A stretch of DNA of 35,487 nt. Source: an uncultured virus (IMG/VR IMGVR_UViG_3300039039_000012) (Duplodnaviria; Heunggongvirae; Uroviricota; Caudoviricetes; Crassvirales). Position 1 is the first letter of the stretch. Every line of letters begins with the position of its first letter. The position numbers and the translations under genes were made by a program. The stretch lies in IMG/VR virus record IMGVR_UViG_3300039039_000012, one strand, 5' to 3'. The notes under the pieces are model-generated. The model had not been told where the DNA came from, searched no databases, and worked only from the letters and a program-made list of their open reading frames with translations. Below are positions 1,270 to 35,487 of the stretch, one piece after another.

Positions 1270-1413
1270 ACTCCCCGTGGAGGATGATAGTGTTGTTGAA
1301 TTAGTTAAAGCTAGTCTTCATTTGCTATTCATTTTTATCCATTTTGTTACAGGGTTTTATATTTGTTTGTTTAGAGTTAAATACATTGATGATAATCATC
1401 CTCTACTCGGAGT
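1270..1413. repeat. inverted pair of GC-rich dispersed motif (copies 1 and 2)
   Basis: ACTCCCCGTGGAGGATG 1270-1286 and degenerate CATCCTCTACTCGGAGT 1397-1413. Confidence 0.85.
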
Positions 1414-3905: not shown

Positions 3906-3956
3906 CATCCTCTACGGGGGGTCGCCACGGAGCGTAGCGTAGTGGCTCTACTAATC
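3906..3956 (+). repeat. GC-rich motif copy 3 plus CGNAG x3 hairpin and CTACTAATC tail
   Basis: CATCCTCTACGGGGGGT 3906-3922; GCCA-CGGAG-CGTAG-CGTAG-TGGC 3924-3946; CTACTAATC 3948-3956. Confidence 0.9.
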
Positions 3957-4033
3957 TAACTATTATTGAATTTATTATAGTTTTAACTATTAAATATAAT
4001 TGTTTTATTAATCTTTAAAAATGTAAAGTACTT

Positions 4034-6835: not shown

Positions 6836-9163
6836 ATGATTAATTGTATAGCTTATGATGTTGAAGTTTTAAGAAATTTCTTTTCTGTTACTTTTGTTAG
6901 TATTAATAGTTATCTTAAAGTTTTTAAGGATTGTGTTAATGCTGATAATAAAGCTATTCCTTTAGTTCAAAAACTATCTGTTGAAGAAATTAAAGCTCGT
7001 CTTGAAACTGTTGAAAAACATAGTTTTCATATAACAGATAAAGATGATAGTCAATTACTTTCTATGATAGGTTATATTAATAAGACTAGATGTTATAAAG
7101 ATTCTAATGGAAATATTATTCGTACTGACTTGTATGGATTTAATAATTTCAATTATGATAATCTTATGATTGCTGCTTTACTTAGTTTTTATATGCGTAC
7201 GAATAGTACGAAAGAACTTATTAATAAGTTATATGAAACAAGTAAAACTATAATTAATAGTCAAAATGATAAAGATAGATTTAAAAATGATTTTTATCTT
7301 ACTAGTCTTAGAAAATATAAACTACCATTTACTGGTATTGATGTAATGAGAATATTTGCTCTTAACAAGGCAAGTTCTGTTATAGATAAGAAAACAGGAG
7401 AACGTAAATATGTTCCTAAAGGTCTTAAGCAAACTTCTATTAATCTTCAATGGTATGAACTTCTAGAATATGAACTTCCTAATATCAATGAAAAAGAAGC
7501 TGAACTATATAATAGTATTCCTAATCTTAAGGGGATGACTGTTCAACAACTTAATAAGTTTGTTGATAAGTGGGATAGATTTATTCTTGATGAATATATT
7601 GAACCTATGATGCATTATAATCTTAATGATGTTTTTATAGTTTGTGAAATTGTTCGTCTTTATCCTGAAGAAATTAAATCCAGATATGCTATTAGTAGAG
7701 CTTATGATGTAGACGTTCTTAATTCTAGTCGTAGTAAAACTGCTGATATTCTTTTTGAGAAGTTTTATAGTAAATTTAGTGGTCTTGCTCCTGAACAATG
7801 GAAAGGTAAGAAAACTGAAAGAACTGCTATGAGTTTTAAAAAAGTTATTTTTCCTTTTATTAAATTTAAAACTAAACCTATGCAAGATTTTCTTGATGAA
7901 TGTCTTAAAACTACTATTTATAGAGTTAATAAAGATGCGTTTAGTAAAGAAGTTAAAATTGGAAATGTAACTTATACTGTTGCTACTGGAGGTTTACATA
8001 GTCAAGATAATCCTATTGAATTATGGAGTAGTGGAAGAGAATTATTTCCATCCTCTACGGGGGGTCAACACGATGTTCTTAATGACGATGATTATGTTTA
8101 TATTCATGCTGATATTAATAGTATGTATCCTAGTATTATTGCTGCTCATAAAGTAGCTCCAGCTCATCTTGATACAAATGCTTTTTGTAATCTTATTGGT
8201 TGGCTTAAAAATAAGAGAGTTGAAGTTAAACACAGCGATGAAGATACTGTTGACGGAATTGATAGAGATACTTTAGCTTTAGTTTTAAAGATTGTTATTA
8301 ATTCTGTTTATGGTAAACTTGGATTTGAAAATGGTAATCTTTATGATAGATTAGCTGTACTTAAGACTACTATTAATGGGCAGTTAATGATGCTAATGTT
8401 GGTTGAGGAATTAGAGTTACACAATATTCATGTGTTAAGTGCTAATACAGATGGTATTGTTATTAAACTTTATAAACGAGATATTGATGTTTATAATCGT
8501 ATTAAAGATGATTGGGAACAAACTACTAAACTTAAGTTTGATACTGATTATTATCATTGTCTTGTTAGTAGAGATATAAATAATTATCTTAGCCAATTTA
8601 GAGTTATTAAAAATGGTGTTCATAAACTTAAGCTTGAATCTAAAGGTGCTCTTAATCCTATGATGTATTCTTTAGATTTAACTAAAGGTTATTCTATGCC
8701 TATTGTTGCTCAAGCTATTGAAAACTATTTTCTTAAGAATAAACCTGTAATGGATACTCTTCAAGAAGCTACTAATATTCTTGACTTTTGTCTTACTCAA
8801 AATGTAGGTAAACAATTTCATGTAGAAGAAACTAAGATTGAAAATGGACAAGTTGCTCATGTTGTTTGTCAAAGATATGTTAGATTTTATGTTTCTAATA
8901 GAGGATATATTATTGAGAAAGTTCATAATGATAACGGTTCTCGTAGTAGAATGGCGGCTGGTTCTGTTGTAACGGTTATTAATAGTCTTGATGATAAAGA
9001 TATTTCTCTTAGAGATATTAATTTTAAATTTTATTATCAAGAAGCTATGAAGATTATTAATCCTATTAAACTTAAGATTTCTCCTAAAGGTAAAGGTAAA
9101 AGTAAAATTAAAAAATATAGTGGTATGTATAATCCTATTTTTAATGAAGATGACTTTGGATGA
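6836..9163 (+). CDS. polB: family B DNA polymerase with 3'-5' exonuclease domain
   Basis: ExoI YDVE, ExoII GFNNFNYD, ExoIII YNLND; motif A DINSMYPS, motif B KIVINSVYG, motif C NTDG. Confidence 0.95.
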   Translation: MINCIAYDVEVLRNFFSVTFVSINSYLKVFKDCVNADNKAIPLVQKLSVEEIKARLETVEKHSFHITDKDDSQLLSMIGYINKTRCYKDSNGNIIRTDLYGFNNFNYDNLMIAALLSFYMRTNSTKELINKLYETSKTIINSQNDKDRFKNDFYLTSLRKYKLPFTGIDVMRIFALNKASSVIDKKTGERKYVPKGLKQTSINLQWYELLEYELPNINEKEAELYNSIPNLKGMTVQQLNKFVDKWDRFILDEYIEPMMHYNLNDVFIVCEIVRLYPEEIKSRYAISRAYDVDVLNSSRSKTADILFEKFYSKFSGLAPEQWKGKKTERTAMSFKKVIFPFIKFKTKPMQDFLDECLKTTIYRVNKDAFSKEVKIGNVTYTVATGGLHSQDNPIELWSSGRELFPSSTGGQHDVLNDDDYVYIHADINSMYPSIIAAHKVAPAHLDTNAFCNLIGWLKNKRVEVKHSDEDTVDGIDRDTLALVLKIVINSVYGKLGFENGNLYDRLAVLKTTINGQLMMLMLVEELELHNIHVLSANTDGIVIKLYKRDIDVYNRIKDDWEQTTKLKFDTDYYHCLVSRDINNYLSQFRVIKNGVHKLKLESKGALNPMMYSLDLTKGYSMPIVAQAIENYFLKNKPVMDTLQEATNILDFCLTQNVGKQFHVEETKIENGQVAHVVCQRYVRFYVSNRGYIIEKVHNDNGSRSRMAAGSVVTVINSLDDKDISLRDINFKFYYQEAMKIINPIKLKISPKGKGKSKIKKYSGMYNPIFNEDDFG
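8049..8065 (+). repeat. GC-rich motif copy 4 (inside polB)
   Basis: CATCCTCTACGGGGGGT, translated PSSTGG. Confidence 0.9.
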
Positions 9164-10186
9164 AAAATATAGTTGAAGAATCATATAGTAAACTTATTAG
9201 TAAATGGGGTTCTAAAGATTATAAAGGTATTGGAACTATCCATTGTGTTCAACCTCTTGATTATTCTGAAATTATAAGTAGAATTATTACTCTTATGAGG
9301 AATAAAAATCCTAATCTTAAAATACTTATTGTTACAGATAATTGGAAAAGAAGAACAGAAATTGTTGATGGTCTTAAAAATCATAATATAAATATAGATA
9401 CTATTAATATTCTTACTCATACTTATGTTAATAGTAGATATAATTATAGTTATGATATTTCTATTGTTGTTGGAGTTAATGAATGGAATCTTTCTTGTAA
9501 TACAGTTTTTAATCATGCTAGATTTAAACTTATGATTATAACTAAAGATACTATTGATACTGCCAAACTAAAAGAAATTTATACTAATATTCCTCCTATT
9601 AATGATAATATAAGTTCTAGTGGTATTAATGCTATGCGAGCTTTACTCCCCGTAGAGGAATACAGAGAGCAAATTTTGTTTGTTAATCAAGATGATATTA
9701 CTAATTATGATAAATATACTGAGTTTATTACTCAAACTATTCAAGTATTTGGTAATCTTGATAATATTAAATGTGCTCGAAATGGTACTCAAGATGGACG
9801 TAGTGCTATGCAATATATTACAGAAATAGCTGAGTATAATGGATGGAGTAATAATATGGATATGACTAATCCTTTTAGTGAACAAATAGATAAATGTTAT
9901 AATCCTATTGTTCTTTCTGAAAGAGTTAAGACTTTCTATAATATTGTTCGTGAACGTACTCTTCTATGTTCTGATAATGTTTGTAAACTAGATAGAATTG
10001 TCGAGATTGTTAAAGATAATCCTGATAAGAAATTTATTATTATTAGTAAGAGAGGAGAATATGCTGCAACTATTACTAAATATATTAATGATAAATTAGG
10101 TGAAATATGTGGTGATTACCATGATAAGATTGATGATAAAGTTCTAGTTGATTCTAATGGTATTCCTGTTTTATACAAAAGTGGAT
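9160..10186 (+). CDS. SF2 (SNF2-like) helicase-related protein, exon 1
   Basis: follows polB as in crAss-like phages; RecA-like alpha/beta pattern; frame interrupted by a group I intron after ...LYKSG. Confidence 0.7.
9645..9661 (-). repeat. GC-rich motif copy 5 (inside helicase-like gene)
   Basis: ACTCCCCGTAGAGGAAT, translated LPVEE. Confidence 0.85.
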
Positions 10187-14393: not shown

Positions 14394-14422
14394 AAATTAA
14401 AGTTAGTTAAATAGTTGTATAT

Positions 14423-14464
14423 AAGAGGATTAGGTACTAATTTAGTGCCTAATCCTCTTTTTTT
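14423..14464 (+). terminator. intrinsic terminator
   Basis: AAGAGGATTAGGTACTAA-T-TTAGTGCCTAATCCTCTT followed by a T-run. Confidence 0.85.
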
Positions 14465-14498
14465 ATATGTTCACGATAAAGGTCAAATTAAGTATATT

Positions 14499-15710
14499 AT
14501 GAAAAGAAATATTGGAAATACTATTTTAACTAAAGATTATATTTTCTCTAAAGTTAGTCAAATAACTATTTTTAGTACCTATACTGGAATTAGTGTTGAA
14601 GATATTCAACATTGTATAGATACTGGAGAATTTATATCTAGTCCTTTTCGTGAAGATACTCATCCTAGTTTTGGTTTTAGATATGATAATAGAAATAAAC
14701 TTAAAGGAAGAGATTTTGCTGGATATTGGTGGGGAGATTGTATAGATGCTGCTGCAACTGTTCTCTCTGAGATTGTTCATAAGCAAATTGATATTTCTAT
14801 TAAGAGTCAATTTCTATTTGTTCTTAAACATATTGCTTATACTTTTAGAAATATTATTTATGGACAAGACAAAGATGAAAACAACGATAGTAGTATTTCT
14901 AGGGCTATTAGTAATGTACGTAATCATAAACCTATTATTGAACTTGTTACTCGTCCGTGGAATAATTTAGACGCTAAGTATTGGGGACAATTTGGTATTA
15001 GTCTTAATTTTCTTAATACTCATTTTGTTTATCCTGTTGAACAATTTTATATTAATCGTTCTACTAATCCTATTCCTAAATATTTTTATGATAAAGATAA
15101 GACTGATTTATGTTATGGTTATGTGCTTGGACAAGATAATAGAGGTATAGTTAATGTTAAACTCTATTTTCCTAATAGAAATAAGAAAACTGAAGTTAAG
15201 TTTATTACAAATAGTAATACTATTGAGGGAGTTATTAATCTTGAATTAGATAGATATGATGCTATTATTATTACTAAATCTACTAAAGATAGATTAAGTC
15301 TTGAAAGTTATATAAAGAATTATAGCCATTCCATCCTCCACGGGGGGTCTACACTGGAAACTAAGTATATTGGTGTTGTTAATATTCCGCATGAAACTTA
15401 TAAACTTCGTCAAATTGAATATGATTGGCTTCGTAGTAAACTTACTAGAAATGGTTTTCTAATCAGTCTTATGGATAATGATAGAACAGGTCTTATGGAA
15501 GCTGTTATTCTTAAGAATGATTATGATATTATACCTATTATTATTCCTAAAGAACTTGGTGTTAAAGATTTTGCTGAATTAAGAAGTAGTTATTCTATAA
15601 ATGTTATTAATGAATTAACTCAACAAGTTGTTAAATATATAGAAGATAATTATGGAGAAGAAACTGAATTTACTTGGAATACGGAAGAAAGTGATACTTT
15701 ACCATACTAA
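14499..15710 (+). CDS. DnaG-like DNA primase
   Basis: ATG14499; N-terminal SPFREDTHPSFGF...DFAG..GDC; TOPRIM 'IITKSTKD', 'MDNDRTG', 'KDFAE'. Confidence 0.85.
   Translation: MKRNIGNTILTKDYIFSKVSQITIFSTYTGISVEDIQHCIDTGEFISSPFREDTHPSFGFRYDNRNKLKGRDFAGYWWGDCIDAAATVLSEIVHKQIDISIKSQFLFVLKHIAYTFRNIIYGQDKDENNDSSISRAISNVRNHKPIIELVTRPWNNLDAKYWGQFGISLNFLNTHFVYPVEQFYINRSTNPIPKYFYDKDKTDLCYGYVLGQDNRGIVNVKLYFPNRNKKTEVKFITNSNTIEGVINLELDRYDAIIITKSTKDRLSLESYIKNYSHSILHGGSTLETKYIGVVNIPHETYKLRQIEYDWLRSKLTRNGFLISLMDNDRTGLMEAVILKNDYDIIPIIIPKELGVKDFAELRSSYSINVINELTQQVVKYIEDNYGEETEFTWNTEESDTLPY
15332..15348 (+). repeat. GC-rich motif copy 6 (inside primase)
   Basis: CATCCTCCACGGGGGGT, translated ILHGGS. Confidence 0.9.
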
Positions 15711-16637: not shown

Positions 16638-17826
16638 ACTTTATCGTAGAAATAATAATGGTGCTCCTACTGTTTGGTGGGCAGAACTTGACAGTGGTAC
16701 TAATAGTATCACTGTTTTTTATGGTCTTATTAAAGGTAACATTCGTAAAGAGATTTATACTGTTACTCAAAAAGATGGTAATAAAGAACTTCAAAGTAGA
16801 TATAATGATAAGATTAAACAAGGTTATAAATATCTTGTAGAGATATGTGATATGAATGATAGACCCCCCGTGGAGGATGTAAGTAGTCTTGAACTATATA
16901 ACTTTCTCAACATTTATCTACCTAAAGAACTTACTAATGGAAATAGTGGTCTTCTACTTCCAATGCTTGCTAAAACGTATAGCAGTAATGTTTGGAAAAA
17001 AGTCGCTTATATGCTTGGTCAGTATAAGATTAATGGTCTTCGTTGTATTATTACTGCTTATGCTCAAAATGATATGTTCAAACCTACCAGACTTCGTTTC
17101 CAAAGTCGTGAAGGTATTACTTGGCATACTCTTGGCTATCTTGAAGATTATCTTCTTTCTGTTATTCCTACAGATGTTATCGGAGATATGATTGATGGAT
17201 ATGTAGCTCTTGATGGTGAAATTTATCTTCCTGGTCATTCAATAAATGAAATTAATCATTTTGTTAAAGACCCTAATTGTCTTGAAAATAAACTTCTTCA
17301 ATTTTGGTGTTATGATATTATGATGGAAGGTAATCAAACAAATAGAAATTGTTATAGATATCATATACATATACCTACTCCATTTGTTGATATTAATACC
17401 CATCTTAATAATAAAGAGCGACTCATTATTCTTCCTCATAGAATTGTTAGTACTGATAATGAAGCTATTGAAGCTAGAAATCATTATATTAATATAGGTT
17501 TTGAAGGTCTTATATTACGTAATCCAGATACTGATTATCAATACGGTCGTCGTAGAGTTAATTATATGGAAAAGTTTAAAGATACTGCTGAAGGAGATTT
17601 TGTTATTATTGATATTTATAAAGAAGAGAAGCGAGATTTACCTATTCTTCTTTGTAGAAATGATATTAATAATGAAACTTTTGAAACTAGATTAAGTTCT
17701 CCACATTCTGTTCAACGTGATGTTTTATATAATAAAGAAAAATTTATTGGAAAAACTGTTCATATACATTATGGCGAAAGAAGTGGAATTAGTAGAGTTC
17801 CGTTTCATATAAAAAGTGTTGTTTAA
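16621..17826 (+). CDS. lig: ATP-dependent DNA ligase with N-terminal WGR-like domain
   Basis: motif I KINGLR, III LDGEIY, IIIa CYDI, IV EGLILR, V EKFK; start may be ATG16630. Confidence 0.9.
   Translation: MKTMNKLYRRNNNGAPTVWWAELDSGTNSITVFYGLIKGNIRKEIYTVTQKDGNKELQSRYNDKIKQGYKYLVEICDMNDRPPVEDVSSLELYNFLNIYLPKELTNGNSGLLLPMLAKTYSSNVWKKVAYMLGQYKINGLRCIITAYAQNDMFKPTRLRFQSREGITWHTLGYLEDYLLSVIPTDVIGDMIDGYVALDGEIYLPGHSINEINHFVKDPNCLENKLLQFWCYDIMMEGNQTNRNCYRYHIHIPTPFVDINTHLNNKERLIILPHRIVSTDNEAIEARNHYINIGFEGLILRNPDTDYQYGRRRVNYMEKFKDTAEGDFVIIDIYKEEKRDLPILLCRNDINNETFETRLSSPHSVQRDVLYNKEKFIGKTVHIHYGERSGISRVPFHIKSVV
16863..16879 (-). repeat. GC-rich motif copy 7 (inside ligase)
   Basis: ACCCCCCGTGGAGGATG, translated PPVED. 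Confidence 0.9.
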
Positions 17827-22072: not shown

Positions 22073-22130
22073 ACTCCCCGTAGAGGACAGAATTAAGTTC
22101 ATCCTCCACGGGGAGTCAACACTACTAATC
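22073..22130. repeat. closely spaced inverted pair of GC-rich motif (copies 8 and 9) plus CTACTAATC tail
   Basis: ACTCCCCGTAGAGGA 22073-22087, CATCCTCCACGGGGAGT 22100-22116, CTACTAATC 22122-22130. Confidence 0.9.
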
Positions 22131-23341: not shown

Positions 23342-24010
23342 ATGGAAGTAAAAGTATTTAAACTAAAAGAGATTAAACTTCTTAGTGGAGATGTTGTAGA
23401 TGTAGAACAGTATTGTAATGTTCAACCTATTCTACCTGCTTATGGTAAAGAAGGTGATGCTTGTATGGATGTTTATCCTATTCATTATGAATATGATAGA
23501 GATAAAGATAGATTTATCTATCATACAGGTTTAGCATTTAATATTGGAGATGATGCTAATGGTGAACCTAATGAAATGTCTTTACGTCCTAGAAGTAATC
23601 TTACTAAATCTGATTTTTATATACCTAATTCTCCTTCTACTATTGATTGGGGTTATCGTGGAGAACTTTTGGTTGCTTTTAAGAATCGTACTTCTAGAGA
23701 TTTAGTTCATGCTGTATCTACTCTTGTTGAAGTAGTTGATAAACTTAGAGAACATATGCATTTACCTGATAGTATGGTTGGTAATGCTAGACTTAAACTT
23801 AATAATGTTAGAACTACAACTACTAATATTCTTGCTAAAGTTTCTACTCCGCCATATAATTGTGATGGTAAAGATAGATGTTGTCAACTTATTATTAATA
23901 GTGCTCAAAGAATTACTTGGAAAGAAGTTAAATCTATTGAAGAATTAGGAGAAAGTGAACGTGGAGACAAAGGATTTGGAGAAGGAACAGGTGGAGCAGC
24001 TAAAGCTTAA
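23342..24010 (+). CDS. dut: trimeric dUTPase with insertion
   Basis: motifs ACMDV, RPRS, TIDWGYRGE, DRCCQL, RGDKGFG. Confidence 0.88.
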   Translation: MEVKVFKLKEIKLLSGDVVDVEQYCNVQPILPAYGKEGDACMDVYPIHYEYDRDKDRFIYHTGLAFNIGDDANGEPNEMSLRPRSNLTKSDFYIPNSPSTIDWGYRGELLVAFKNRTSRDLVHAVSTLVEVVDKLREHMHLPDSMVGNARLKLNNVRTTTTNILAKVSTPPYNCDGKDRCCQLIINSAQRITWKEVKSIEELGESERGDKGFGEGTGGAAKA

Positions 24011-25479: not shown

Positions 25480-25629
25480 ATGACAGTTAAAGAACTTATA
25501 GAAACACTTAAGACTTGTGATGAAAAGTCTGAAGTAAAAGTTGAACATTGGAATAGTACAGTATCTTCTATTGAAGAAGTTATTGATTATAGTAAAGAAC
25601 TTAGTGAAGTTATTATAACTATTGAATAG
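25480..25629 (+). CDS. 49-aa small phage protein
   Basis: read by hand: MTVKELIETLKTCDEKSEVKVE...IITIE; the MTVKELIE.L start is common in small phage proteins. Confidence 0.7.
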   Translation: MTVKELIETLKTCDEKSEVKVEHWNSTVSSIEEVIDYSKELSEVIITIE

Positions 25630-25663
25630 TTAATACTGATGCTAATGGTTTATATGTTATATG

Positions 25664-25692
25664 TAAAGCTGGCTCTAATAGAGCTGGCTTTA
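25664..25692. terminator. hairpin, possible terminator
   Basis: TAAAGCTGGCTCT-AAT-AGAGCTGGCTTTA with two G-U pairs. Confidence 0.55.
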
Positions 25693-25714
25693 TTAAACTT
25701 AATGATTAGCTTGG

Positions 25715-25891
25715 ACCCGCTACGAGTGCTACGCACTCTTCGCTATACTCCCCGTAGAGGATGGAATGGTAGTTATGCTAGTAATATTAGTATAGTTATT
25801 AATAATAATGATTATATTGATTGAATGAATACTAGTCTATTCCATCCTCTACGGGGAGTTGAGCGTAGCGAAGCGGAGCGTTCTACTAATC
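25715..25891. other. symmetric element: motif copies 10 and 11 as a perfect 21-bp inverted repeat around an AT-rich core, with outward CGNAG triplets
   Basis: ACTCCCCGTAGAGGATGGAAT 25747-25767 / ATTCCATCCTCTACGGGGAGT 25839-25859. Confidence 0.9.
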
Positions 25892-25919
25892 CTTAAACTT
25901 ATAGTCGTTGGCATGACTG

Positions 25920-25965
25920 AAACCTCGGTAGCTAAGCTAGTCTTACTACTGGGGTTTATTTTTAT
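25920..25965 (+). terminator. intrinsic terminator-like hairpin
   Basis: AAACCTCGGTAG...CTACTGGGGTTT then ATTTTTAT. Confidence 0.65.
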
Positions 25966-25995
25966 CTTATTATTAAACTTAAATATATTATAATT

Positions 25996-26178
25996 ATGGT
26001 TGCATTTATTGTTCTTCTTGGAATTGTATTTGGTGGTGTTAAACTATTAGCAGTTGCTAATAATATTAGTGATAGTGAAGCTATGGATAAGTATAGTGGA
26101 AAACTATTTGTTGTTGGTATTATAGTTTTTATTATTCTTATGTGTGTTATTGGTAATAATGATGATGGTTTTAATTAA
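25996..26178 (+). CDS. small two-TM membrane protein
   Basis: 60 aa, two hydrophobic helices. Confidence 0.75.
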   Translation: MVAFIVLLGIVFGGVKLLAVANNISDSEAMDKYSGKLFVVGIIVFIILMCVIGNNDDGFN

Positions 26179-26333
26179 GATATTACTATTATTAATAATC
26201 ATATAGGCTATGCGCCTACGCACAAAGGTTGCACCTTTGATTGGCTTATAGAATAGACTAGATATTCGTAGTCGTTAAAGTGCTGATAATCAGCATAAAA
26301 GCTATGTTAAATCAACACCCGTAGTATGACTGA

Positions 26334-26368
26334 TACAAAGATTAGTAGAACTAGTACAAAGATTAGTA
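26334..26368 (+). repeat. 14-bp direct repeat with 21-bp period (iteron-like)
   Basis: TACAAAGATTAGTA at 26334-26347 and 26355-26368. Confidence 0.8.
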
Positions 26369-26389
26369 TAATTTTTTATTCTATTAACA

Positions 26390-26417
26390 TTTGATATAGT
26401 TATATTTTTTATCTTTG
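26390..26417 (+). promoter_or_regulatory. probable host-type promoter of repL
   Basis: TTTG 26390-26393 and TATCTTTG 26410-26417 (16-nt spacer, shorter than usual). Confidence 0.55.
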
Positions 26418-26437
26418 GAATATAAAATTATATTCTT

Positions 26438-27004
26438 ATGCCTACATTTAAATCTATTAGTAAAAGTAATAAATCTAATAATAGTATAGTTAATTATGCT
26501 ATTAATGATGTTAATACAGTAGCTATTGTAACAAAAGATGGTGAAATTATTGATAAGAAAGATGTTCTTGTCATGTATGCTGATTCTAAAAGTCATAAAC
26601 AACTTATTGATGAACAAAAGAAAAGATTATATTTTAAAGTGTTTATTGATACTTTAGGTAATATTTATAATCTTACTAATAATGAAAAAAATGTTTTATT
26701 TTATATTAATAGTCATGTTCTTTTAACAAGACAAAAACCAGATAAAACTAAACTTTATTTTTCAGTTAATGCTATGTTTTATGACGATTGTGAAGAAGAA
26801 ACTAAAGTTCCAAAACCATCTATAAAATCAGCATTATCTAGTCTTAAAGATAAAGGATTTATTAATCATTATAAAGATAAAGAGGATAAATGTGTTAAAG
26901 GTTGTTATGTTGCTAATCCTAAATATATTTATAGTGGTACTCCTGAAGATTATGTTAATGATTGCTTTGAACTTCAAACTAAAGGTATTCTTGTATTAAT
27001 ATAA
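26438..27004 (+). CDS. repL: RepL-like plasmid replication initiator (winged HTH)
   Basis: LTNNEKNVLFYI...PSIKSALSSLKDKGFI...GCYVANPKYIYSG matches the RepL pattern; position matches crAssphage. Confidence 0.72.
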   Translation: MPTFKSISKSNKSNNSIVNYAINDVNTVAIVTKDGEIIDKKDVLVMYADSKSHKQLIDEQKKRLYFKVFIDTLGNIYNLTNNEKNVLFYINSHVLLTRQKPDKTKLYFSVNAMFYDDCEEETKVPKPSIKSALSSLKDKGFINHYKDKEDKCVKGCYVANPKYIYSGTPEDYVNDCFELQTKGILVLI

Positions 27005-27075: not shown

Positions 27076-30000
27076 TTATTCAAATATATCTTTAGCTATA
27101 TCTTTATAAGGTATAATACTAAGTATATTTTCATCAAGTTTATAATAACTATTATTATTAGGTAAATCAAGAACTCGATTAATACTACGAACAACAGGTA
27201 TATTACGAACAGCCATAACTTCAAACTTATTCATACCTTTATATCTACCAGTAGTATATTCCTCTGTGAAATCTTCTTCAATAAGGAATCTAGCAGCCAT
27301 AGCAGTAGTACCAATTAAGTCATTAATAGTTTGTCCAATAGCAACAGGACTAGACCATAGTTTTTTACCTTCAGCATAAGCACCAAATGGAGTAAATGAA
27401 GCAGCTTCAGAAGCAAGACGGTCAGCGTGATAAAGCATAAGATTATACATAATACTTTCATCATCATCACCTCCCATACCAGTTATAGCAATTGCTCCAA
27501 TAATGGCGGCTCCTACATAAAGTAAATCACCTAAATTACGTCTAATATTTGCTTTTTCATGTTCAGGAAGAAGTTCATAGTTAAGTTTGAAATTAACAGC
27601 AAATGAAAGTAAATTCTTACCATAAGTTTGGAATGCTTTAAGAACATCACTTACATTATTAACTTCTCCTACGTTACTTTCTTTAAATGGAATAGTCAAA
27701 TAATCATAAAGACTAGTATAACTACCTTTTTCAACAGTACCTAGAGTTTCATTATAATAACCATTCCAACGATAACGTTTCTTAAAACCAGGATAAAGAT
27801 GTTTATGATATTGCATAACCATACCACCCCACCAATGTTGTTCAATATTAGCAGAACCAAGTTTATCATAAACACCATGAACTTTCTTATTTACTTCACG
27901 AACTTTATCAATAAATTTAGCATATTCTTTAAGAGTAAGTTTACTATCAGATTTTATTTGAGCAATTCCATCTTTAAGTTCAAATTGATTATAAATATCT
28001 GGAAGTTTAGCAAACTTTTTATCAATATTTTTAATAAGTTCTTTACGTTTAGCTATATATTCTCTTTGTTGTTCTTCATTAAGATAAGTCTTAACAAAAT
28101 CGAATATAGGATTAGCTTTAAATAGATTATATTTAGCTCGTTTTTTATTATCAGCTTTAGCTTCATCCATGAACTTATTGAATTGTTCAAGTAGAGCTTG
28201 GTTCTCTCCTCCACGGGGAGTATTTATTACAGACATAAGAGCATCTTGTTCAGCTTTACGATGATACATTTCTTTACTCATTATATCATAACCACCTCTA
28301 CCATTATCAACAAGTCTATGAGATTTAAGCATAGCAAATAGCATAACATTTTGCATATAATGTTCACCAACAGATTGAGGACTAAATAGTAATCCACGAA
28401 CTCTACGAATATTTTCTCTAAGACCTTCAGCAGTACTAACTTCAGTTACTCTATCAAAATCAACTACATGACTAAGTTTAATAATAGCATCTTGAAGTGT
28501 ACTACTATTTTCACTATACATATTAGCCATATAACTAACAGTTCCTTTAATCCATTCAGATTTACCAGCTTCCCAATCTTTAAGATTAATATATTCACCA
28601 GCAGCTCGTTCCATAAATATATTACTAGAACCAGTAAGAACGTTAGCAATACCACCAGTTATATTCATCATCATATATTTACTACCAGCAATATTCTGAG
28701 CAAGAGAACCTAGTTTAACTAGATTAGGAGTTTTATTATCTTTATATTGTTCAAATACAAGACGACGTATAAAACTTCTAAGATGTTCACTAGTTCTAGT
28801 TTGTTTTTCTTGTTTATATTCAATTTCTCCACCAGCACTAGCTTCTCTATTTTCAGTTATACTACCTTTATAATTTATATCATAAGCAGTATTACTAGTA
28901 ATAATTTGGTCAGCAGTATAAAGAAGATTTTTAACTGTTTTAATAGCATTATATCTATTACTTTCAATTAAGAAACTATTAAATACTTCTTCCCAATTAC
29001 GATTAAGAATATCATTATGAATCTTATTATTCTTTTCAATAATTTCATCTCTAGCTTTAATTGCAGCAGCTTTACGTTTACTAAATTCTTCATCACTTTC
29101 ATTAGGTTCTTTAAATCTAGGTATAGTAGGAAGTTGTTGAGTATCTTTATTAACTAACTGAACTAATCTAGGATTAGGAATATCATAATCTTTATCAAAA
29201 GTTAAATCTTCATTATTTCTCCAACTAGTATTATTAGGAACATTGGCTGTCCAACCAAGAAAACTAAGAGCTTGTTCAAAGTAATCTTTAACAGTCATAT
29301 CTTTAGATTTAGGTAAAGCTGGAAGATAACCCATATCAACATATCTCTTATTACTATTAGTAAAACAATACTTTTTCATAAGTTCATTTACTTTATTCAT
29401 AAGTTCAAGTTGATACTCATTAAGATTAGTATAATTAGGATTATCATATCCTGTTCCTATTTTGTACTTATTAACAAAACTACTATATTCTGGATTAACA
29501 AGTTCTTCTTTAGGAGTAATGTGCATTTGATTAATACGTGGTTCATAATTACCAACAACAGCTGAACCATCATCTTTAATCATTTGCATAGTAGTCCAAA
29601 TACGAATAGGTTTAATAGTACGAGTGTAAGGGTCAAAATAATGATTATCTCTATACCATTGTTTATATTCAATACTATCAATACCATATTTGTCAAGAAC
29701 TTCTCTTTCTTTCATATAATAATATTGAGTAGTAGTTTCTCTAGTTCTCTTTTGAAGAATATTAATTGCAGCAGTTCTATCAATATCAGTCCATTTATCT
29801 AAATCTTTAGGTTTAATAATACCATAAATAGTTCGATTAGGTCTTTCTGCAATAGTTCCATTTTCTTCAACTTGTTCACTAAATACTTCTAGCCATTTAT
29901 CATAATACTTTTTACCTTTAGTAAAAGCTCTATTTTTATCAAGTTCATATTGTTTCCAATTATAAGTAACATCACATTCACTTTCAATAAATTCAGCAAC

Positions 30001-33000
30001 ACGTTTTGCTTTATCTTTATCAGTACTCTTTTCACCTCTAGTAATTTCATTAAATACTTCAAAACCAGTCTTGAGTTGTTCTAAATCTTCTTGACTAATA
30101 TCAGCAGTATTAAGAGTTCTAGTAGCATTATCAAAATATTTTTCAAGTATTTTATTAATAGCTTCTCCTACATTAATTTCTTCTTCGCTCTTAGATTTAT
30201 TACCTGTAAGATAATTATAAAAATCAGCACGATAAATTCTTAATTCATCTTCAGCAGAACGAATAATACCAACATAAGGCATACCATTACCTTTAGTATA
30301 TTTATATTTTCTAACTGTTTCAGCTTTTATAAGAGCTGCACGTTCTTCAGGTATTTTACGTCCATCAACTACGTTAAATTCATCTTTAGCTTGAAATTCT
30401 CTAATAGCAAGATTAAGAACACTATTACCTTTATTAGCGTCTTTAAGTTCTTCAAATGCCCAATTTAAATCTTCTATATCTTTAATATCAAGAATATATC
30501 TAGTATTCTTACGAATCCATTCTTTAGCTTCACGATATTCAGGAACTTTCATAAGTTCTTCCATACTAATAAGAAGATTACCATTAGCATCACGTTGACT
30601 TTCATATTTACTAATAATAGAAAGTTGTTCTTTAAGTTTAGAATCAAATCCTTCTTTAGCTTGCTTATCATAGAACATTTCTTTAATTTTACGAATATTA
30701 GTTTGATAAGCACGAAGTCTTTCAGCTACATTTAAATCATGACCAATTTTTTTATTACCATCTTCATCGTAAAGACTAGTAAGACTATCCATTTGAGCGT
30801 ATATACGTCCAAGTTCTTCATCTTGACTTTGCGTAGTAACATTATCAGTAGCTTGACTTAGAATATCTCGTATTCTACCATTAAGTCTTTTATATTCAGC
30901 AAATTCTTTAGGAATACCATCATCTCCTTTTTTAAGTCCTAATAAACTTCTTTCAAGATTTATAATATAAGTAGAATATTCAATAGTAATATTATTACCA
31001 TCTTCATCTTGAACAGTAATTGGTTTAAGATGATGAATAGTAGTCATATCAATAAATTTAGCTTTATTAGATAAAGCAATAAGATGTTCAACACTATTAA
31101 TACCAAATTTTTGTTCAGCTTCAATGGCAGCATCTCTATATTTCTTCATCTTTTCTTCCCAAATAGGATTATTAGGTTGAATTAATCTACCATCATCATC
31201 AATTATACTATCAAGACTAACAGATTTACCATCTTTAGCAGCTCTAGATTTAAGTTCTTTAAGATAATTTCTAAAGTCATTAGATTCTTTAATACCATTA
31301 AGACGACCTTCTTCAACAGTACCCATTACATCTTTAAGTATATTTTGCAATACAAAGTTACGATTAGCACGAATATCTTGTATCCAATAGTCCATAAATC
31401 CAGTATCTCCATAAGCATCAAATTCTTTCATAAGACCACTTATATAATTAGGATTAGTAGTACGTAATTGAATCCATCTTTCAAACCAATCTTTTCTAGC
31501 AGAATGTACAGTAGTATTAGAATCAACTTGATTAACTAGTTTCTGAATCTTTCTAATATTCTCTTTAGTTTTATCATCAAGATTTGTACTATCAATATCA
31601 ATTTCGCTAATAAGTTTGTATTTATTCTTAAATGTATTAGCACTAAGAATAACATCTAAGAAACGATTTTGAAGTTGTTCATCTTTAAGAACTTTACTAA
31701 TAACATCTTTATCGTTAATAGGTTTATCAATACCGTCAATTTTAATAAAACGATTAATATCATTAAGAATATTATTAGCTTCAACATCTATATAATTAGC
31801 TATAACTGATAATGAAAATTCAGAATTATCAGAAAGACTACTACTATCAAGATAGTTAATTTCAGCATTATTTAAAGCATTAAGAACATTTTGAGCAGCA
31901 GGTTGACCATGACGAACAGCACGAGAAATAACTAAACTAGCATTTTTAGCAAATCTACCAATAGGAGTTTGGTCATCAACACTACTATATCTATCAGTAT
32001 TACTAGTAACTCTATTTATTTCATTTTCATTAATTTCAATAAATAATCCAAGTTTATTATCTTCAATATTAGGATATTTAGCTTTATATTGTTTTAAATC
32101 ATCACTTAAATTAATAGCAGTAGTTCCATTAATATTAAGATAAAATTTATCATTAATAGTATATATAGTATTATTCTCAAAAGGAGTATTCATAAAAGGC
32201 TGGAAATACTCATCAGATATATATTTACTATATAGTTCAGGAACTTCTTTATAACCTTTATTTACAGCTTCATTAATATTATCTTTAATACCATCAATAA
32301 ACTTATCTCTTTTTTCTTGTTGAGTAAGACCATCATAAAGGAGAACAGCTAATGGTTTATGAATATTATTATTAGCTATAATACTAGGCTCAATACTATT
32401 ATAAGTTTCAAATGATTCAAGTCTATCAATAGGATAATAAGCTAAAGTTCCATCATAAGTTCCTTTAATATATAAATTTCTATTAATTCTAATAACATTA
32501 ACAGCATCTCCATTTCTTATTATTCCTACATTATCAAGATTTTCTTGACCATTAAAAGTAATAATACCACTTCTTTTTAGACTATAATTAATTTTATTAT
32601 TAGTAAGTCTTTTAAATGTATAACTAGGACAATTAAAACTATTATAATTCTTACGAATAAAACCAATTATATCTTCAACATTATCTTTATCAACAAAACC
32701 ATAACTATTAATACCTTTCATAGCTATATCTCCAATAGCTATTCCGCCCTCACTCAATCCTCTAAGGGGAGTATTACTTATAAGTCTACTAATATTTCTA
32801 GTTCTAAATTTATGACCTTCAACAATAAAAGCATATTTAACTAAATCAAGAGCTGTAAGTTTAATAAGAGGATTGGGATGATTCCAAGCTCTATCAAACA
32901 ATCTATGGGCTTCATCATTAGTAATATCACCTTGTATGTAATTAATATATTGAATATTTACATTACGACGATTATTTCTTTCATCATTAGCAACTATTTC

Positions 33001-35487
33001 AATATGCTCAAATACACTACCATCTTGACTAAAGTTACGTTTAATCCAATCAACTTTCTGAGCAGGAGTAAGTCTAGCAAATACATCAATTTCAGTTTGT
33101 GTAGGTTCAAATATATTTTTAACTACAACATCATCAGTTTTAATATTAACTAATGTACCACTAACTCTACCAACTTCTAAAGCTCTAGATTGACCAGTAC
33201 CATATTCTTTAATATATTTAGGATGAACAAAATCACCATTAACAATAGTAACAGGTAAATTAAGATAAGAACTACCATTATTACCTACTTCTAGTTTATT
33301 AATAAGATAATCTTTATAATCATTATATAACTTTTCAGTCATTATTCCACCTTTAGTCCATTCTGCTATTCTATACACATAATCAATAAATACAGGATTA
33401 GCAGTTTCAAATACTTGTTGAGTAGCTTTAACACTAAGAGCAGTACTCATTTGTAAAAATGCCGCTAAACTAGGATAACTACTTTTAGATATATCTGATT
33501 TAATAAACGCATCTATACCACCGCTAATATCAGGAAAGACACTCTCTAGCAACAAGGTTTGACCCCCCGTAGAGGATGGAGCATAAATATTACTATTCTC
33601 AATAACAGTTCTAGCATCTCTAAATACTTTATCACTAGCATAAAAACTTTGTTTAGCACCATATTTATCAGCACTAAGAATATTAAGATTATTACTTATA
33701 TCCTGTCCGATTGAGTTTAACCGATTGAATTGTGCTAGAACATAAAGGTCAAATAAAGCCTGCTGAACGCCATTCATTTCCCCTCTAAGACGAGATTTAT
33801 ATGCGTCTGATGAAAATATAAGGTCAGGTGATGAAAATGCTTCAGAAACGCTTAAATTGAATATTTTCTTGAAAGTTTCACCATAACTTTCATTAATAAT
33901 ATCAATTAGCTTTTTACGTCCAGCAAAATTAACTTTTTCACCAAAACCAAGACTATGAGCAACTTCTCTAATAGCTTCAGTAAGCGGATTTTTAGTACCT
34001 TCTGCAAGAACACTATTAGTTTCTTTCCATTTACGAACTAGTATGTCAATAGCAGGTTGCCACATAAATCCAATAGCAGTATCATAATTACTTCCAAAGT
34101 CAACAATAGTTTTAAAAGCATTAAACGTATAAGTATTTTCATTATGTATAGCTCCCTCTTTCATAACATCAAGAATATGAGCAGTAGTCTGAGAACTATA
34201 AGGATTAATCAAATAACCATCAACATTCTTATCATCTCCAGACCAACCAAAATTCTTATGAGTAATACGAATATGTTTATTACCAATAGTTTCAACATTT
34301 TCTTTACCATATCTATTAACAGCTTCTTGCTCACTAATCACATCAGTAGTGTACATAACTTTAATACCTTCACTATGATTAGCTTTAGTAACATTACCAA
34401 TACTCATAAAAGTATCTCGATTAACACTGATACCTTTAAGTTTAATACCAGAAGTAGCAGCATCAAACCAATCAAGTTGAGTAAAGAAATCACTAGGAGC
34501 AACAGTTGTTTTATTAGCACCAACTATTTCTGCATAAGTTTCATTAGCTTCTTTGACATTTTCAAAATTAGAAGTAGTAGTATTTTCTTCAAATGCAGCA
34601 GGATTATTAAGTATATCAATAAATGATTGAATAATAGCATTAGTTCTAGCAGCTTGACTACTTGTATCCTCCACGGGGAGTTTCAAGTATGATTCGTAAG
34701 ACTTAAGTCCACCATCATTAGCAATTTTTTCAACAACTTTAAGATTACCATTATAACCTTCAAGAGTAGCATTAATAGCATCTTCGCTATTTTTTAAAGA
34801 AGCTCTAATATTACCTTGTTTATTATAAGTTTTACCAAGAATCTTACGACTAGCTTTATCTACATTATCTTTAACATAATTAATATATCCTACTTCATCT
34901 TTAGTATATCTAGAGTGAGTAATTTCAGTTGGAATACCTTTAACAAGATTAAATGTTTTAGACATACCATAAACACTATCAACGTCAAAGTCAGAACCAG
35001 TTTGAGTAACCCATTCATCAGGAACAACAACAGTACTACCATAGGCATCTGGAAGAAACTCCTTAACATACATAATACATATAGATTGCTTACCTTCAGT
35101 AGGAATACGATAACCAATCATAGTACGTAAGCTATCAGGAACTTGTTCAATATTTAATCCTTTAAGTTTACTACTCCATCTAGGAAGTTTAATTTCAGTA
35201 TAATAAACAGGAGTGCCATCAACTTCTCCAATCTTTTTATATTGAAGTTTACTATCTGTTTGAGTTTGTTTATCAACTTTAAACCCAAAGTCAGATAGCT
35301 GAGCAGCATGCCATCCACTAATAAGTTGTCTAGTAATATTAGTATTAAAATAACTATTAGCAATACTTTCAAGTTTACTATTAATATTAGACAAAAATAA
35401 AGGAAGATTATTAAATCCAGCACTATCTAAATCAAAAAATTCAAGAAGAGCTTTCTCAACTCCTTGTTGTTGAGCATTTTCTTTAAA
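27076..35487 (-). CDS. giant virion-packaged two-barrel DNA-dependent RNA polymerase (5'-truncated)
   Basis: frame is open to the window edge (2803 codons before the stop); GYRIPTEG and catalytic GSDFDVD (34978-34992) as in crAss-like vRNAPs. Confidence 0.9.
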   Translation of the reverse strand, partial: FKENAQQQGVEKALLEFFDLDSAGFNNLPLFLSNINSKLESIANSYFNTNITRQLISGWHAAQLSDFGFKVDKQTQTDSKLQYKKIGEVDGTPVYYTEIKLPRWSSKLKGLNIEQVPDSLRTMIGYRIPTEGKQSICIMYVKEFLPDAYGSTVVVPDEWVTQTGSDFDVDSVYGMSKTFNLVKGIPTEITHSRYTKDEVGYINYVKDNVDKASRKILGKTYNKQGNIRASLKNSEDAINATLEGYNGNLKVVEKIANDGGLKSYESYLKLPVEDTSSQAARTNAIIQSFIDILNNPAAFEENTTTSNFENVKEANETYAEIVGANKTTVAPSDFFTQLDWFDAATSGIKLKGISVNRDTFMSIGNVTKANHSEGIKVMYTTDVISEQEAVNRYGKENVETIGNKHIRITHKNFGWSGDDKNVDGYLINPYSSQTTAHILDVMKEGAIHNENTYTFNAFKTIVDFGSNYDTAIGFMWQPAIDILVRKWKETNSVLAEGTKNPLTEAIREVAHSLGFGEKVNFAGRKKLIDIINESYGETFKKIFNLSVSEAFSSPDLIFSSDAYKSRLRGEMNGVQQALFDLYVLAQFNRLNSIGQDISNNLNILSADKYGAKQSFYASDKVFRDARTVIENSNIYAPSSTGGQTLLLESVFPDISGGIDAFIKSDISKSSYPSLAAFLQMSTALSVKATQQVFETANPVFIDYVYRIAEWTKGGIMTEKLYNDYKDYLINKLEVGNNGSSYLNLPVTIVNGDFVHPKYIKEYGTGQSRALEVGRVSGTLVNIKTDDVVVKNIFEPTQTEIDVFARLTPAQKVDWIKRNFSQDGSVFEHIEIVANDERNNRRNVNIQYINYIQGDITNDEAHRLFDRAWNHPNPLIKLTALDLVKYAFIVEGHKFRTRNISRLISNTPLRGLSEGGIAIGDIAMKGINSYGFVDKDNVEDIIGFIRKNYNSFNCPSYTFKRLTNNKINYSLKRSGIITFNGQENLDNVGIIRNGDAVNVIRINRNLYIKGTYDGTLAYYPIDRLESFETYNSIEPSIIANNNIHKPLAVLLYDGLTQQEKRDKFIDGIKDNINEAVNKGYKEVPELYSKYISDEYFQPFMNTPFENNTIYTINDKFYLNINGTTAINLSDDLKQYKAKYPNIEDNKLGLFIEINENEINRVTSNTDRYSSVDDQTPIGRFAKNASLVISRAVRHGQPAAQNVLNALNNAEINYLDSSSLSDNSEFSLSVIANYIDVEANNILNDINRFIKIDGIDKPINDKDVISKVLKDEQLQNRFLDVILSANTFKNKYKLISEIDIDSTNLDDKTKENIRKIQKLVNQVDSNTTVHSARKDWFERWIQLRTTNPNYISGLMKEFDAYGDTGFMDYWIQDIRANRNFVLQNILKDVMGTVEEGRLNGIKESNDFRNYLKELKSRAAKDGKSVSLDSIIDDDGRLIQPNNPIWEEKMKKYRDAAIEAEQKFGINSVEHLIALSNKAKFIDMTTIHHLKPITVQDEDGNNITIEYSTYIINLERSLLGLKKGDDGIPKEFAEYKRLNGRIRDILSQATDNVTTQSQDEELGRIYAQMDSLTSLYDEDGNKKIGHDLNVAERLRAYQTNIRKIKEMFYDKQAKEGFDSKLKEQLSIISKYESQRDANGNLLISMEELMKVPEYREAKEWIRKNTRYILDIKDIEDLNWAFEELKDANKGNSVLNLAIREFQAKDEFNVVDGRKIPEERAALIKAETVRKYKYTKGNGMPYVGIIRSAEDELRIYRADFYNYLTGNKSKSEEEINVGEAINKILEKYFDNATRTLNTADISQEDLEQLKTGFEVFNEITRGEKSTDKDKAKRVAEFIESECDVTYNWKQYELDKNRAFTKGKKYYDKWLEVFSEQVEENGTIAERPNRTIYGIIKPKDLDKWTDIDRTAAINILQKRTRETTTQYYYMKEREVLDKYGIDSIEYKQWYRDNHYFDPYTRTIKPIRIWTTMQMIKDDGSAVVGNYEPRINQMHITPKEELVNPEYSSFVNKYKIGTGYDNPNYTNLNEYQLELMNKVNELMKKYCFTNSNKRYVDMGYLPALPKSKDMTVKDYFEQALSFLGWTANVPNNTSWRNNEDLTFDKDYDIPNPRLVQLVNKDTQQLPTIPRFKEPNESDEEFSKRKAAAIKARDEIIEKNNKIHNDILNRNWEEVFNSFLIESNRYNAIKTVKNLLYTADQIITSNTAYDINYKGSITENREASAGGEIEYKQEKQTRTSEHLRSFIRRLVFEQYKDNKTPNLVKLGSLAQNIAGSKYMMMNITGGIANVLTGSSNIFMERAAGEYINLKDWEAGKSEWIKGTVSYMANMYSENSSTLQDAIIKLSHVVDFDRVTEVSTAEGLRENIRRVRGLLFSPQSVGEHYMQNVMLFAMLKSHRLVDNGRGGYDIMSKEMYHRKAEQDALMSVINTPRGGENQALLEQFNKFMDEAKADNKKRAKYNLFKANPIFDFVKTYLNEEQQREYIAKRKELIKNIDKKFAKLPDIYNQFELKDGIAQIKSDSKLTLKEYAKFIDKVREVNKKVHGVYDKLGSANIEQHWWGGMVMQYHKHLYPGFKKRYRWNGYYNETLGTVEKGSYTSLYDYLTIPFKESNVGEVNNVSDVLKAFQTYGKNLLSFAVNFKLNYELLPEHEKANIRRNLGDLLYVGAAIIGAIAITGMGGDDDESIMYNLMLYHADRLASEAASFTPFGAYAEGKKLWSSPVAIGQTINDLIGTTAMAARFLIEEDFTEEYTTGRYKGMNKFEVMAVRNIPVVRSINRVLDLPNNNSYYKLDENILSIIPYKDIAKDIFE
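28205..28221 (+). repeat. GC-rich motif copy 12 (inside vRNAP)
   Basis: TCTCCTCCACGGGGAGT, translated TPRGG. Confidence 0.85.
32756..32772 (+). repeat. GC-rich motif copy 13, one core mismatch (inside vRNAP)
   Basis: AATCCTCTAAGGGGAGT, translated TPLRG. Confidence 0.7.
33562..33578 (-). repeat. GC-rich motif copy 14 (inside vRNAP)
   Basis: ACCCCCCGTAGAGGATG, translated PSSTGG. Confidence 0.9.
34665..34681 (+). repeat. GC-rich motif copy 15 (inside vRNAP)
   Basis: TATCCTCCACGGGGAGT, translated LPVED. Confidence 0.85.

Follow-up and report, generated by a model that had tools for sequence, protein, structure and literature searches.

A back-to-back pair of a dispersed strand-specific word with DNA mini-hairpin tails in crAssphage: a possible single-strand initiation zone

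crAssphage carries, dispersed along both strands of its genome, a signal of its own (called here the word), and the element described in this work is a back-to-back pair of it, with one copy per strand and an AT-rich spacer between them. The element occupies positions 25704-25891 of a 35,487-nucleotide stretch of DNA from an uncultured virus (IMG/VR record IMGVR_UViG_3300039039_000012); this whole stretch is referred to as the window, and positions are those of the window unless another genome is named. The window represents a strain of Carjivirus communis, the prototypical crAssphage; comparison of 25600-26000 with nine GenBank records gave 96-97% identity. From the likeness of its layout to known systems, it is tentatively proposed that the element may be a zone of single-strand initiation, comparable to RSF1010's ssiA/ssiB or to the complementary-strand origin of G4. 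What is new here is the palindromic long-form pair with its DNA mini-hairpin tails, the existence of a twin at the genome head and the independence of the element from the neighbouring initiator cassette.

The Element and the Dispersed Word

An earlier reading of this DNA, made from its letters alone (the sequence-only reading), had described a perfect 21-bp inverted repeat around 71 bp of very AT-rich DNA, with C-GNA-G units outside it. A repeat search reproduced the coordinates of the repeat (Table 1), which can be extended to 30 nt at 90%, and all three C-GNA-G units of the + strand (25863-25879) and all three of the - strand (25720-25742) are present. The two-fold symmetry also holds, with the word followed on each strand by three such units running outward. 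This is the only perfect inverted repeat of at least 15 nt with a spacer of up to 150 nt in the window, and Markov-1 resamples of the window contain a mean of 0.06 inverted-repeat seeds. Folding with DNA parameters gave z scores of -10.3 and -8.6 against shuffles on the two strands, and with RNA parameters both strands were also far more stable than shuffles. The hairpins said to insulate the element were found on both sides of it; their stems contain G-U pairs (two G-T/G-U pairs in the upstream one), making the upstream hairpin possible, and the downstream one functional as a terminator-like stem, on the + strand only. As for the core, its GC content (21%) is indeed below the window mean (28%), which places it just at the 15th percentile of 71-nt windows, and the true GC outliers are the arms and tails (53-55%). 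With its AT content modestly over background and two core versions about 25% apart, the core gives little support to its reading as an exceptional unwinding element.

The arms are copies of the word, whose consensus of about 25 nt is YCCATCCTCYACGGGGRGT plus some weaker positions, arranged in Carjivirus as a pyrimidine tract, T/CAC and a G run. A 20-mer from the arm occurs, with up to 3 mismatches, at 9 places in the window (0 expected), and the 13-mer ATCCTCYACGGGG, with up to one mismatch, at 14 sites (0.01 expected), which bears out the suggested link of the element to a system of dispersed motifs. In the reference genome, BK010471, a strict search gives 24 sites (0 with the reversed-pattern control), and the 13-mer at up to one mismatch gives 32. 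In Delmidovirus cr110_1, whose polymerase is 59% identical, there are 26 sites of TCCTCTACGGGGGGTC, and in Whopevirus ctbg_1 there are 0 sites of the Carjivirus and Delmidovirus patterns and 23 of its own variant, CCCTTTACGGGCCAG; the reversed-pattern control was 0 in both genomes. A pyrimidine tract, TAC and a G run form the core common to the three genera. In a 2.3-Mb metagenome bin, 29/29 exact matches fell on the crAssphage contig. Copies of the word are mostly intragenic, the others lying between genes.

All three genera have a copy in the family-B DNA polymerase gene, at a variable loop that precedes the DxxSxYPS motif (in the window, the copy at 8050). This copy is translated as PSSTGG in Carjivirus and Delmidovirus and as LYGGV in Whopevirus, and in the Wotdevirus polymerase the loop is deleted and the word absent. 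In the window, the copies at 8050 and 15333 are in two different reading frames. Since the same spot of the polymerase bears the word in different frames, selection on it acts on nucleotides rather than on protein. The copy at the Whopevirus ctbg_1 polymerase site, CTTTACGGGGGAG, is nearer the Carjivirus version.

Five 11-letter pieces of the word were absent from every paper of the literature searched, and the crAssphage papers found there do not describe it. The passages of the papers found there on MITEs (transposable elements of miniature size with inverted repeats) give no relation to known crAss phages. Short likenesses to the DnaA box, a conserved 16S rRNA stretch, Chi, a relaxase nick site and the ssoA consensus were considered and rejected, as they fail across the three genus variants.

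The Long Form and Its Mini-Hairpin Tails

A subset of the copies, 7/32 sites of BK010471, has a long form, in which the 50 nt that come after the word contain, on its own strand, two or more CGNAG around a small hairpin (about 0.04 CGNAG are expected per 50-nt tail). In the element both copies have this rare form, with three GNA-loop mini-hairpins after each word, and nowhere else do two long forms point outward from one another; of the seven, three belong to the two repL-proximal pairs (see below). Among copies, the middle stems of the tails vary (C/G, AGC/GCT, GCAC/GTGC, AGTGC/GCACT, GAC/GTC) and all of them pair, and the loops are GNA throughout, with GAAA once. GCGNAGC occurs 5 times in the window (1.3 expected; five were reached in 2/100 shuffles), and each of the five comes immediately 3' of a word copy, on that copy's strand. 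In the right tail of the element, GCGGAGC corresponds to 25873-25879 and GAAGCGG to 25870-25876.

GCGAAGC had been pointed out in the sequence-only reading as an ultra-stable mini-hairpin, in agreement with what is known of the GCGNAGC fold, examples of which are the primase site of G4, ssiA of RSF1010 and the hairpin promoters of N4 (PMC13037366). This mini-hairpin forms with GNA loops only, melts at 70-76 C as DNA (r(GCGAAAGC) melts at 39 C) and is poorly bound by single-stranded DNA-binding protein (SSB) (PMC13037366). A fold that is restricted to GNA loops, specific to DNA and resistant to SSB suggests that the tails act as single-stranded DNA.

A scan of the collection for the two-arm pattern gave 37 loci, 17 of this element and 20 of a second, longer-spaced pair, and the alignment of this element contained 19 sequences. 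The right arm and right tail are invariant in it except for a Y position, which gives an A-C mismatch between the arms in 9/19. In the stem of the left tail there are compensatory changes (pair 33/39 is GC in 14 sequences and AU in 5), and a loop shift from TAC to TTC retains GNA on the - strand. Two base pairs beyond the arms (74/144 and 75/143; the latter GC in 14 and AU in 4) are maintained by different sequences in the two versions of the spacer, which are about 25% apart; sequence comparison showed that the second version is not an inversion of the first. A + strand fold of the spacer was considered as a conserved feature and rejected: the surplus of G-U pairs on the + strand, and a fold advantage of 15-22 kcal/mol, are seen in the common spacer version only, and for this reason the inner spacer fold is not treated as conserved. 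The second pair has, in 2/20 strains, GAC-GAAA-GTC where the others have AGC-GAA-GCT.

Spacing and Orientation of the Word

The distribution of the word along the genome is more even than random placement. When sites within 700 nt were merged, the coefficient of variation (CV) of the gaps was 0.46 in each of Carjivirus, Delmidovirus and Whopevirus (P = 5e-5, 3.5e-4 and 1.5e-4, respectively, against random placement). Taken strand by strand, evenness was most marked on the - strand of Carjivirus (n=18, CV 0.31, with 0/20,000 simulations as even) and on the + strand of Whopevirus (n=13, CV 0.38, P=2.5e-4), followed by the + strand of Carjivirus (n=14, CV 0.50, P=0.005) and the - strand of Delmidovirus (n=15, CV 0.55, P=0.0125); values for the + strand of Delmidovirus (n=11, CV 0.59) and the - strand of Whopevirus (n=10, CV 0.61) were P=0.06 and P=0.10. 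The many short-form copies recur every 5-7 kb per strand.

The word shows no significant preference for gene direction, with 48/81 sites co-oriented (P=0.12; in this count site 95745 (-) was scored as opposed, although it is directed into a - block). A bias of about 17-18/24, obtained with a strict 15-mer, disappeared in this fuller list and was discarded. Even spacing on both strands, across blocks transcribed in opposite directions, suggests that what the word serves is a process of the DNA itself, following both strands, and not transcription. Between 30 and 59 kb of BK010471, where the giant virion-protein genes lie, co-oriented and opposite-strand copies take turns with few exceptions, and the distance between them is often 0.2-2.3 kb; for the block as a whole, the runs test, made as an estimate, was not significant (z ~1.5).

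Independence from the Neighbouring Initiator Cassette and the Second Pair

The element had also been placed about 550 bp upstream of a repL gene, and its arms read as initiator sites. The next larger open reading frame (ORF) does start at 26438, 547 nt on. In Pfam its matches were to TrmB (winged helix-turn-helix) and Rep3_N, all sub-threshold, and a PHROGs profile search gave no match for the initiator ORFs or for gp42. It has no significant likeness to gp43 of BK010471, a short and weak local likeness to gp88, and few relatives (10 clusters were found). The whole of 26180-27000, including the direct repeats and promoter box upstream of the ORF, has no match in the GenBank crAssphage records: in its place, 4/9 strains have an unrelated gp43-type allele and 5/9 have no cassette. 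The run data, which are assembled Logan contigs informative on cassette joints rather than on transcription or molecule ends, agree with this variability, with 26179 joined straight to 27001 in the contigs of runs X10 and X12, 768 other letters in X16 and the window's own allele in X4. The element is present in 9/9 GenBank strains and in contigs of 4/4 runs, whatever the state of the cassette.

These results bear on the main option of the sequence-only reading, an origin private to the adjacent RepL-type initiator. In its favour, a pair is found upstream of both RepL-type genes of the reference genome, and RepL-like genes lie at about 0.3-0.7 kb from the two Delmidovirus pairs. Nevertheless, the word has 30 further copies that are distant from all initiator genes, and the cassette is swapped or absent while the element is kept unchanged, so that it is very unlikely to be the private site of that initiator, and the option is largely refuted.

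The second pair of BK010471 is of the same build and lies in the divergent region at the genome head, 260 nt upstream of gp88, the sole protein to attain the RepL threshold of Pfam. In this pair the left copy is short, the right copy long and the spacer 91-103 nt. An origin of C. communis has been predicted by OriFinder directly upstream of this same repL, where long-read coverage is higher (PMC10983915). The origin predictions in the passages of that preprint concerned with them are located elsewhere than the element described here, and the words "hairpin" and "inverted repeat" are absent from it. In Delmidovirus the corresponding location, near the end of the replication block and downstream of the N4-gp49-family gene, also has a back-to-back pair, after which comes, as here, a terminator-like hairpin; a further pair is at the genome head. 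Both ends of the Delmidovirus cr110_1 record (L033 1-70; L034 end) have tandem CTTGCTGCT repeats, adjoining a stretch of TA repeats, very AT-rich, and the word's head pair. BK010471 has, upstream of its other repL, two longer direct repeats, of about 25 nt and 42 nt apart (L027 ~47422-47490).

A Single-Strand Initiation Zone as a Possible Function

In the proposed mechanism the region would be unwound, whether a fork does this or the spacer opens locally, and each exposed strand would display the word and its hairpins, which would remain folded and bind SSB poorly. A phage enzyme would then lay a primer, the candidates being a putative DnaG-type primase and the virion RNA polymerase. Extension toward the 5' end of the template would proceed inward over the spacer: the primer of the right tail (+ strand) would be extended leftward through word and spacer, and that of the left tail (- strand) rightward. 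The two new strands would depart in opposite directions, and the outcome would be two diverging leading strands. For the short solo copies scattered along each strand, the role would be that of ordinary sites of re-start within this system. Three points are inferred: reading of the signal in single-stranded form, priming as its act, and the identity of the enzyme that reads it. The bidirectional origin proposed in the sequence-only reading survives here in part, its strand-specific priming signals being the best-fitting reading of the element, and its initiator link and unwinding core having found no support.

The phage encodes a polymerase, a superfamily 1 (SF1) helicase and a ligase, and the putative primase, ORF 14415-15710, is 62% and 49% identical to genes of relatives annotated as DnaG-family primase. 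The crAss-like virion RNA polymerase of phi14:2 transcribes single-stranded, and not double-stranded, DNA in vitro (10.1101/2020.03.07.982082).

The closest parallel is the oriV of RSF1010, whose complementary strands carry ssiA and ssiB, a pair of inverted repeats of 40 nt. Each of the two begins 5' with a linear stretch for recognition, followed by a hairpin, and the primer starts 3' of that hairpin and is extended through it (PMC8567376). These signals are active only as single-stranded DNA and each of them starts one daughter strand (PMC8567376, PMC13037366). The crAssphage element shares with them the presence of two like signals on complementary strands in inverted orientation, as well as the layout of a linear stretch followed by a hairpin with a GNA-type mini-hairpin, with stems that covary in crAssphage. 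There is no sequence likeness between the two systems; the crAssphage word is longer than an ssi and is scattered about 30 times, whereas ssiA and ssiB occur once each, and its tails have three mini-hairpins instead of one 21-nt hairpin. RSF1010 has the RepB' primase and adjoining iterons bound by the initiator, whereas in crAssphage the neighbouring cassette, with its direct repeats, is dispensable. The complementary-strand origin of G4 also has a stable mini-hairpin of the GCGNAGC or GCGAAAGC type (one crAssphage tail has a GAAA loop), and its SSB-resistant hairpin I, with GCGAAAGC, marks the start for the DnaG primase on single-stranded DNA (PMC13037366). G4 has, however, a single site on one strand of a single-stranded genome, whereas the crAssphage signals are on both strands of a 97-kb duplex and include a long linear word. 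The lytic origin of P1 resembles crAssphage in that a RepL-family initiator is encoded beside the candidate origin; it lies inside repL (PMC10983915), whereas the crAssphage element is outside the cassette and persists without it.

Several observations weigh against a single-strand initiation zone. Pairing of the arms within a strand would bury the word in a stem, and the AT-richness of the core is just modest (21% versus 28% GC). Copies in Delmidovirus and Whopevirus have no GNA tails, so the hairpins are not essential to the word family. Opposite-strand pairs within 900 nt are in excess in Carjivirus with borderline support (7/14 versus 4.0 expected, P=0.05) and not significant in Delmidovirus and Whopevirus. 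Searches of Pfam and PDB with the ORF 14415-15710 gave no match, its primase label being the depositors' annotation of relatives, and the starts of DNA synthesis are deduced, the available runs being assembled contigs, which cannot show molecule ends. Finally, the + strand has the stronger RNA fold (-114.7 kcal/mol, z -9.5, versus -85.2), the element lies between two + strand terminator-like hairpins, and 6/7 long forms are co-oriented with genes, which suits an RNA role too.

Alternative Explanations

These last points are also the main support for the element being a transcribed + strand RNA of 190 nt between two terminators, folded as one long and almost perfect hairpin that would serve in processing or stability, or else would be a small non-coding RNA with stem strands matching the word in phage messages, which we consider unlikely. 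The predominance of G-U pairs on the + strand in the common spacer version (7-10 versus 0-4 on the - strand), a bias repeated in the second pair (14 versus 1), and the restriction of both flanking hairpins to the + strand are in line with an RNA, but the strand bias is reduced or gone in four strains with the other spacer version (e.g., -83.2 versus -84.1), and the inner spacer fold is not conserved. Moreover, the GNA loops of the left tail exist on the - strand only and are kept there through compensatory change, the mini-hairpin is much less stable as RNA than as DNA (PMC13037366), the two strands fold almost equally under DNA parameters, and the words are found on both strands irrespective of gene direction (48/81 co-oriented). 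No Rfam family matched the window at the gathering threshold (0 matches); the best sub-threshold match, to a plant microRNA-precursor model, reached 39 bits against a threshold of 130 and did so on both strands, thus amounting to "a long hairpin". Of similarly low probability is that the words are duplex sites for a protein, such as an architectural or condensing factor or a site-specific nickase like those that make the fixed nicks of T5-type phages, with the pair resulting from two sites that chance to face each other. A long word (~25 nt) in both orientations, with even spacing and conserved positions, is what such sites would look like; however, a duplex site has no need of hairpin tails with compensatory changes, opposite-strand copies 25-31 nt apart (22076/22101 in the window and 61312/61343 in Delmidovirus) would amount to two close nicks, and no reader protein has been identified.

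Hairpin promoters of N4 type for the virion RNA polymerase, the second option of the sequence-only reading (as a divergent pair), are improbable. The N4 promoter hairpin lies on the template strand, and with this geometry 6/7 long forms, which are on the coding strand, would give antisense transcripts, as would the element itself. The words are also found throughout late genes, inside them and on both strands. N4 promoters do share the GCGGAGC or GAA-loop mini-hairpin, whose 3-nt purine-centred loop agrees with the crAssphage loops, and are recognised in single-stranded DNA by a virion-packaged polymerase, and the GCGGAGC of the right tail is the mini-hairpin word contacted by the N4 enzyme (PMC13037366); the phi14:2 virion RNA polymerase also uses a single-stranded template (10.1101/2020.03.07.982082). 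Yet the N4 enzyme is T7-like and has few promoters before early genes, whereas the crAss enzyme is two-barrel, QDE-1-like and not T7-like, and the parts of the same study that deal with transcription describe early transcripts without a common upstream motif, and middle and late genes dependent on the host RNA polymerase (10.1101/2020.03.07.982082). As improbable as the initiator-private origin, and more so than the N4-type promoters, is a selfish repeat, functionless for the phage, of the repetitive extragenic palindromic (REP) or MITE kind. It would account for a GC-rich repeat with inverted pairs in an AT-rich genome, for intragenic copies in variable loops and for an apparent exchange of tail modules among copies. 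Such a repeat does not explain the matching gene positions in genera whose polymerases are just 48-59% identical, with nucleotides kept across frames, nor a spacing unlike insertional scatter; both pair geometries coexist with many solo copies, most of them inside genes, in place of the fixed geometry of REP or MITE repeats, and the exact matches in the metagenome bin were all on the crAssphage contig.

Other Features of the Window

The features of the element, its flanks and the remaining copies of the word are collected in Table 1. Searches for tRNA and tmRNA genes found none. A scan for sigma-70-type promoters gave 22 sites versus 20.2 in shuffles, i.e., no signal, and the literature search on transcription starts and terminators of Crassvirales gave nothing on crAss. 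Promoters of Bacteroides type have the consensus box TAnnTTTG, which is absent from the element and has a single occurrence in 25500-26500, at 26410, before the initiator ORF. This box (TATCTTTG, 26410-26417), just upstream of the ORF, is likely a host-type promoter, and the direct repeats 26334-26368 are likely the operator or iterons of the initiator ORF.

Table 1. Features of the window (+ and - refer to the strands of the 35,487-nucleotide stretch).
Feature	Position	Strand	Description
Word copy	1273..1285	-	
Long-form copy	3907..3960	+	Word with GNA-hairpin tail, intergenic
Word copy	8050..8062	+	Within the gene of the family-B DNA polymerase; three genera have the word here, in different frames
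Word copy	9648-9660	-	
Word copy	15333..15345	+	In ORF annotated as DnaG-family primase in relatives
Word copy	16866-16878	-	
Tight back-to-back pair	22076..22113		Copies 22076-22088 (-) and 22101-22113 (+); hairpin just past ORF end
Terminator-like hairpin	25663..25689	+	3' of upstream ORF; 11-bp stem, loop TAATA
Left tail of the element	25704..25746	-	Three GNA-loop units, CGAAG (25738-42), AGTGC-GTA-GCACT (in GAGTGC-GTA-GCACTC, 25724-38) and CGTAG (25720-24), then GGGTCCAAGCTAATC
Left arm	25747..25767	-	Copy of the dispersed word
Spacer	25768..25838		71 nt, 21% GC, variable, two versions among strains
Right arm	25839..25859	+	Copy of the dispersed word
Right tail of the element	25860..25891	+	GCGTAGC, GCGAAGC and GCGGAGC, overlapping at 25863-25879, then GTTCTACTAATC; unchanged in 19/19 aligned strains
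Intrinsic-terminator-like hairpin	25920..25966	+	Hairpin 25920-25957; 12-bp stem with G-U pairs, then T-rich run
Small hydrophobic ORF	25996..26178	+	60 aa; 95% identical to gp42 of BK010471; conserved along with the element
Two 14-nt direct repeats	26334..26368	+	TACAAAGATTAGTA, 21 nt apart; inside the variable cassette
Initiator-like ORF ("repL" of the sequence-only reading)	26438..27004	+	188 aa; rare allele in the 820-nt cassette 26180-27000
Word copy	28206-28218	+	
Word copy	32757-32769	+	
Word copy	33565-33577	-	
Word copy	34666-34678	+	

Other differences among strains were noticed in the window. Around 25509-25639, the gene of the N4-gp49/Sf6-gp66 family (gp41 of BK010471) is missing, and contigs of other strains have 576-598 additional letters. 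At 23635-23650 the contig of one run has 1030 additional letters, which match the HNH-endonuclease intron in the dUTPase gene of BK010471; the dUTPase copy of the window appears to be intron-less.

Implications

The prototypical crAssphage ranks with the most abundant human gut viruses, and a genome-wide, evenly spaced and strand-specific signal that runs through essential genes and is conserved across genera is unusual in a double-stranded DNA phage. The element is the clearest handle on this system, being short, intergenic and invariant, and its mini-hairpins are directly testable with oligonucleotides; propagation of C. communis on Phocaeicola is now possible (PMC10983915). As a general proposal, more doubtful than the function suggested for the element itself, crAss-like phages might fix the start of each new strand by an evenly spaced, strand-specific word, read by a phage primase or by a virion RNA polymerase that depends on single-stranded DNA and acts as the replicative primase, the palindromic long-form pairs being the strongest sites and launching both leading strands without the neighbouring initiator. 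If it is true that the word fixes strand starts, it would represent a new way to organise replication.

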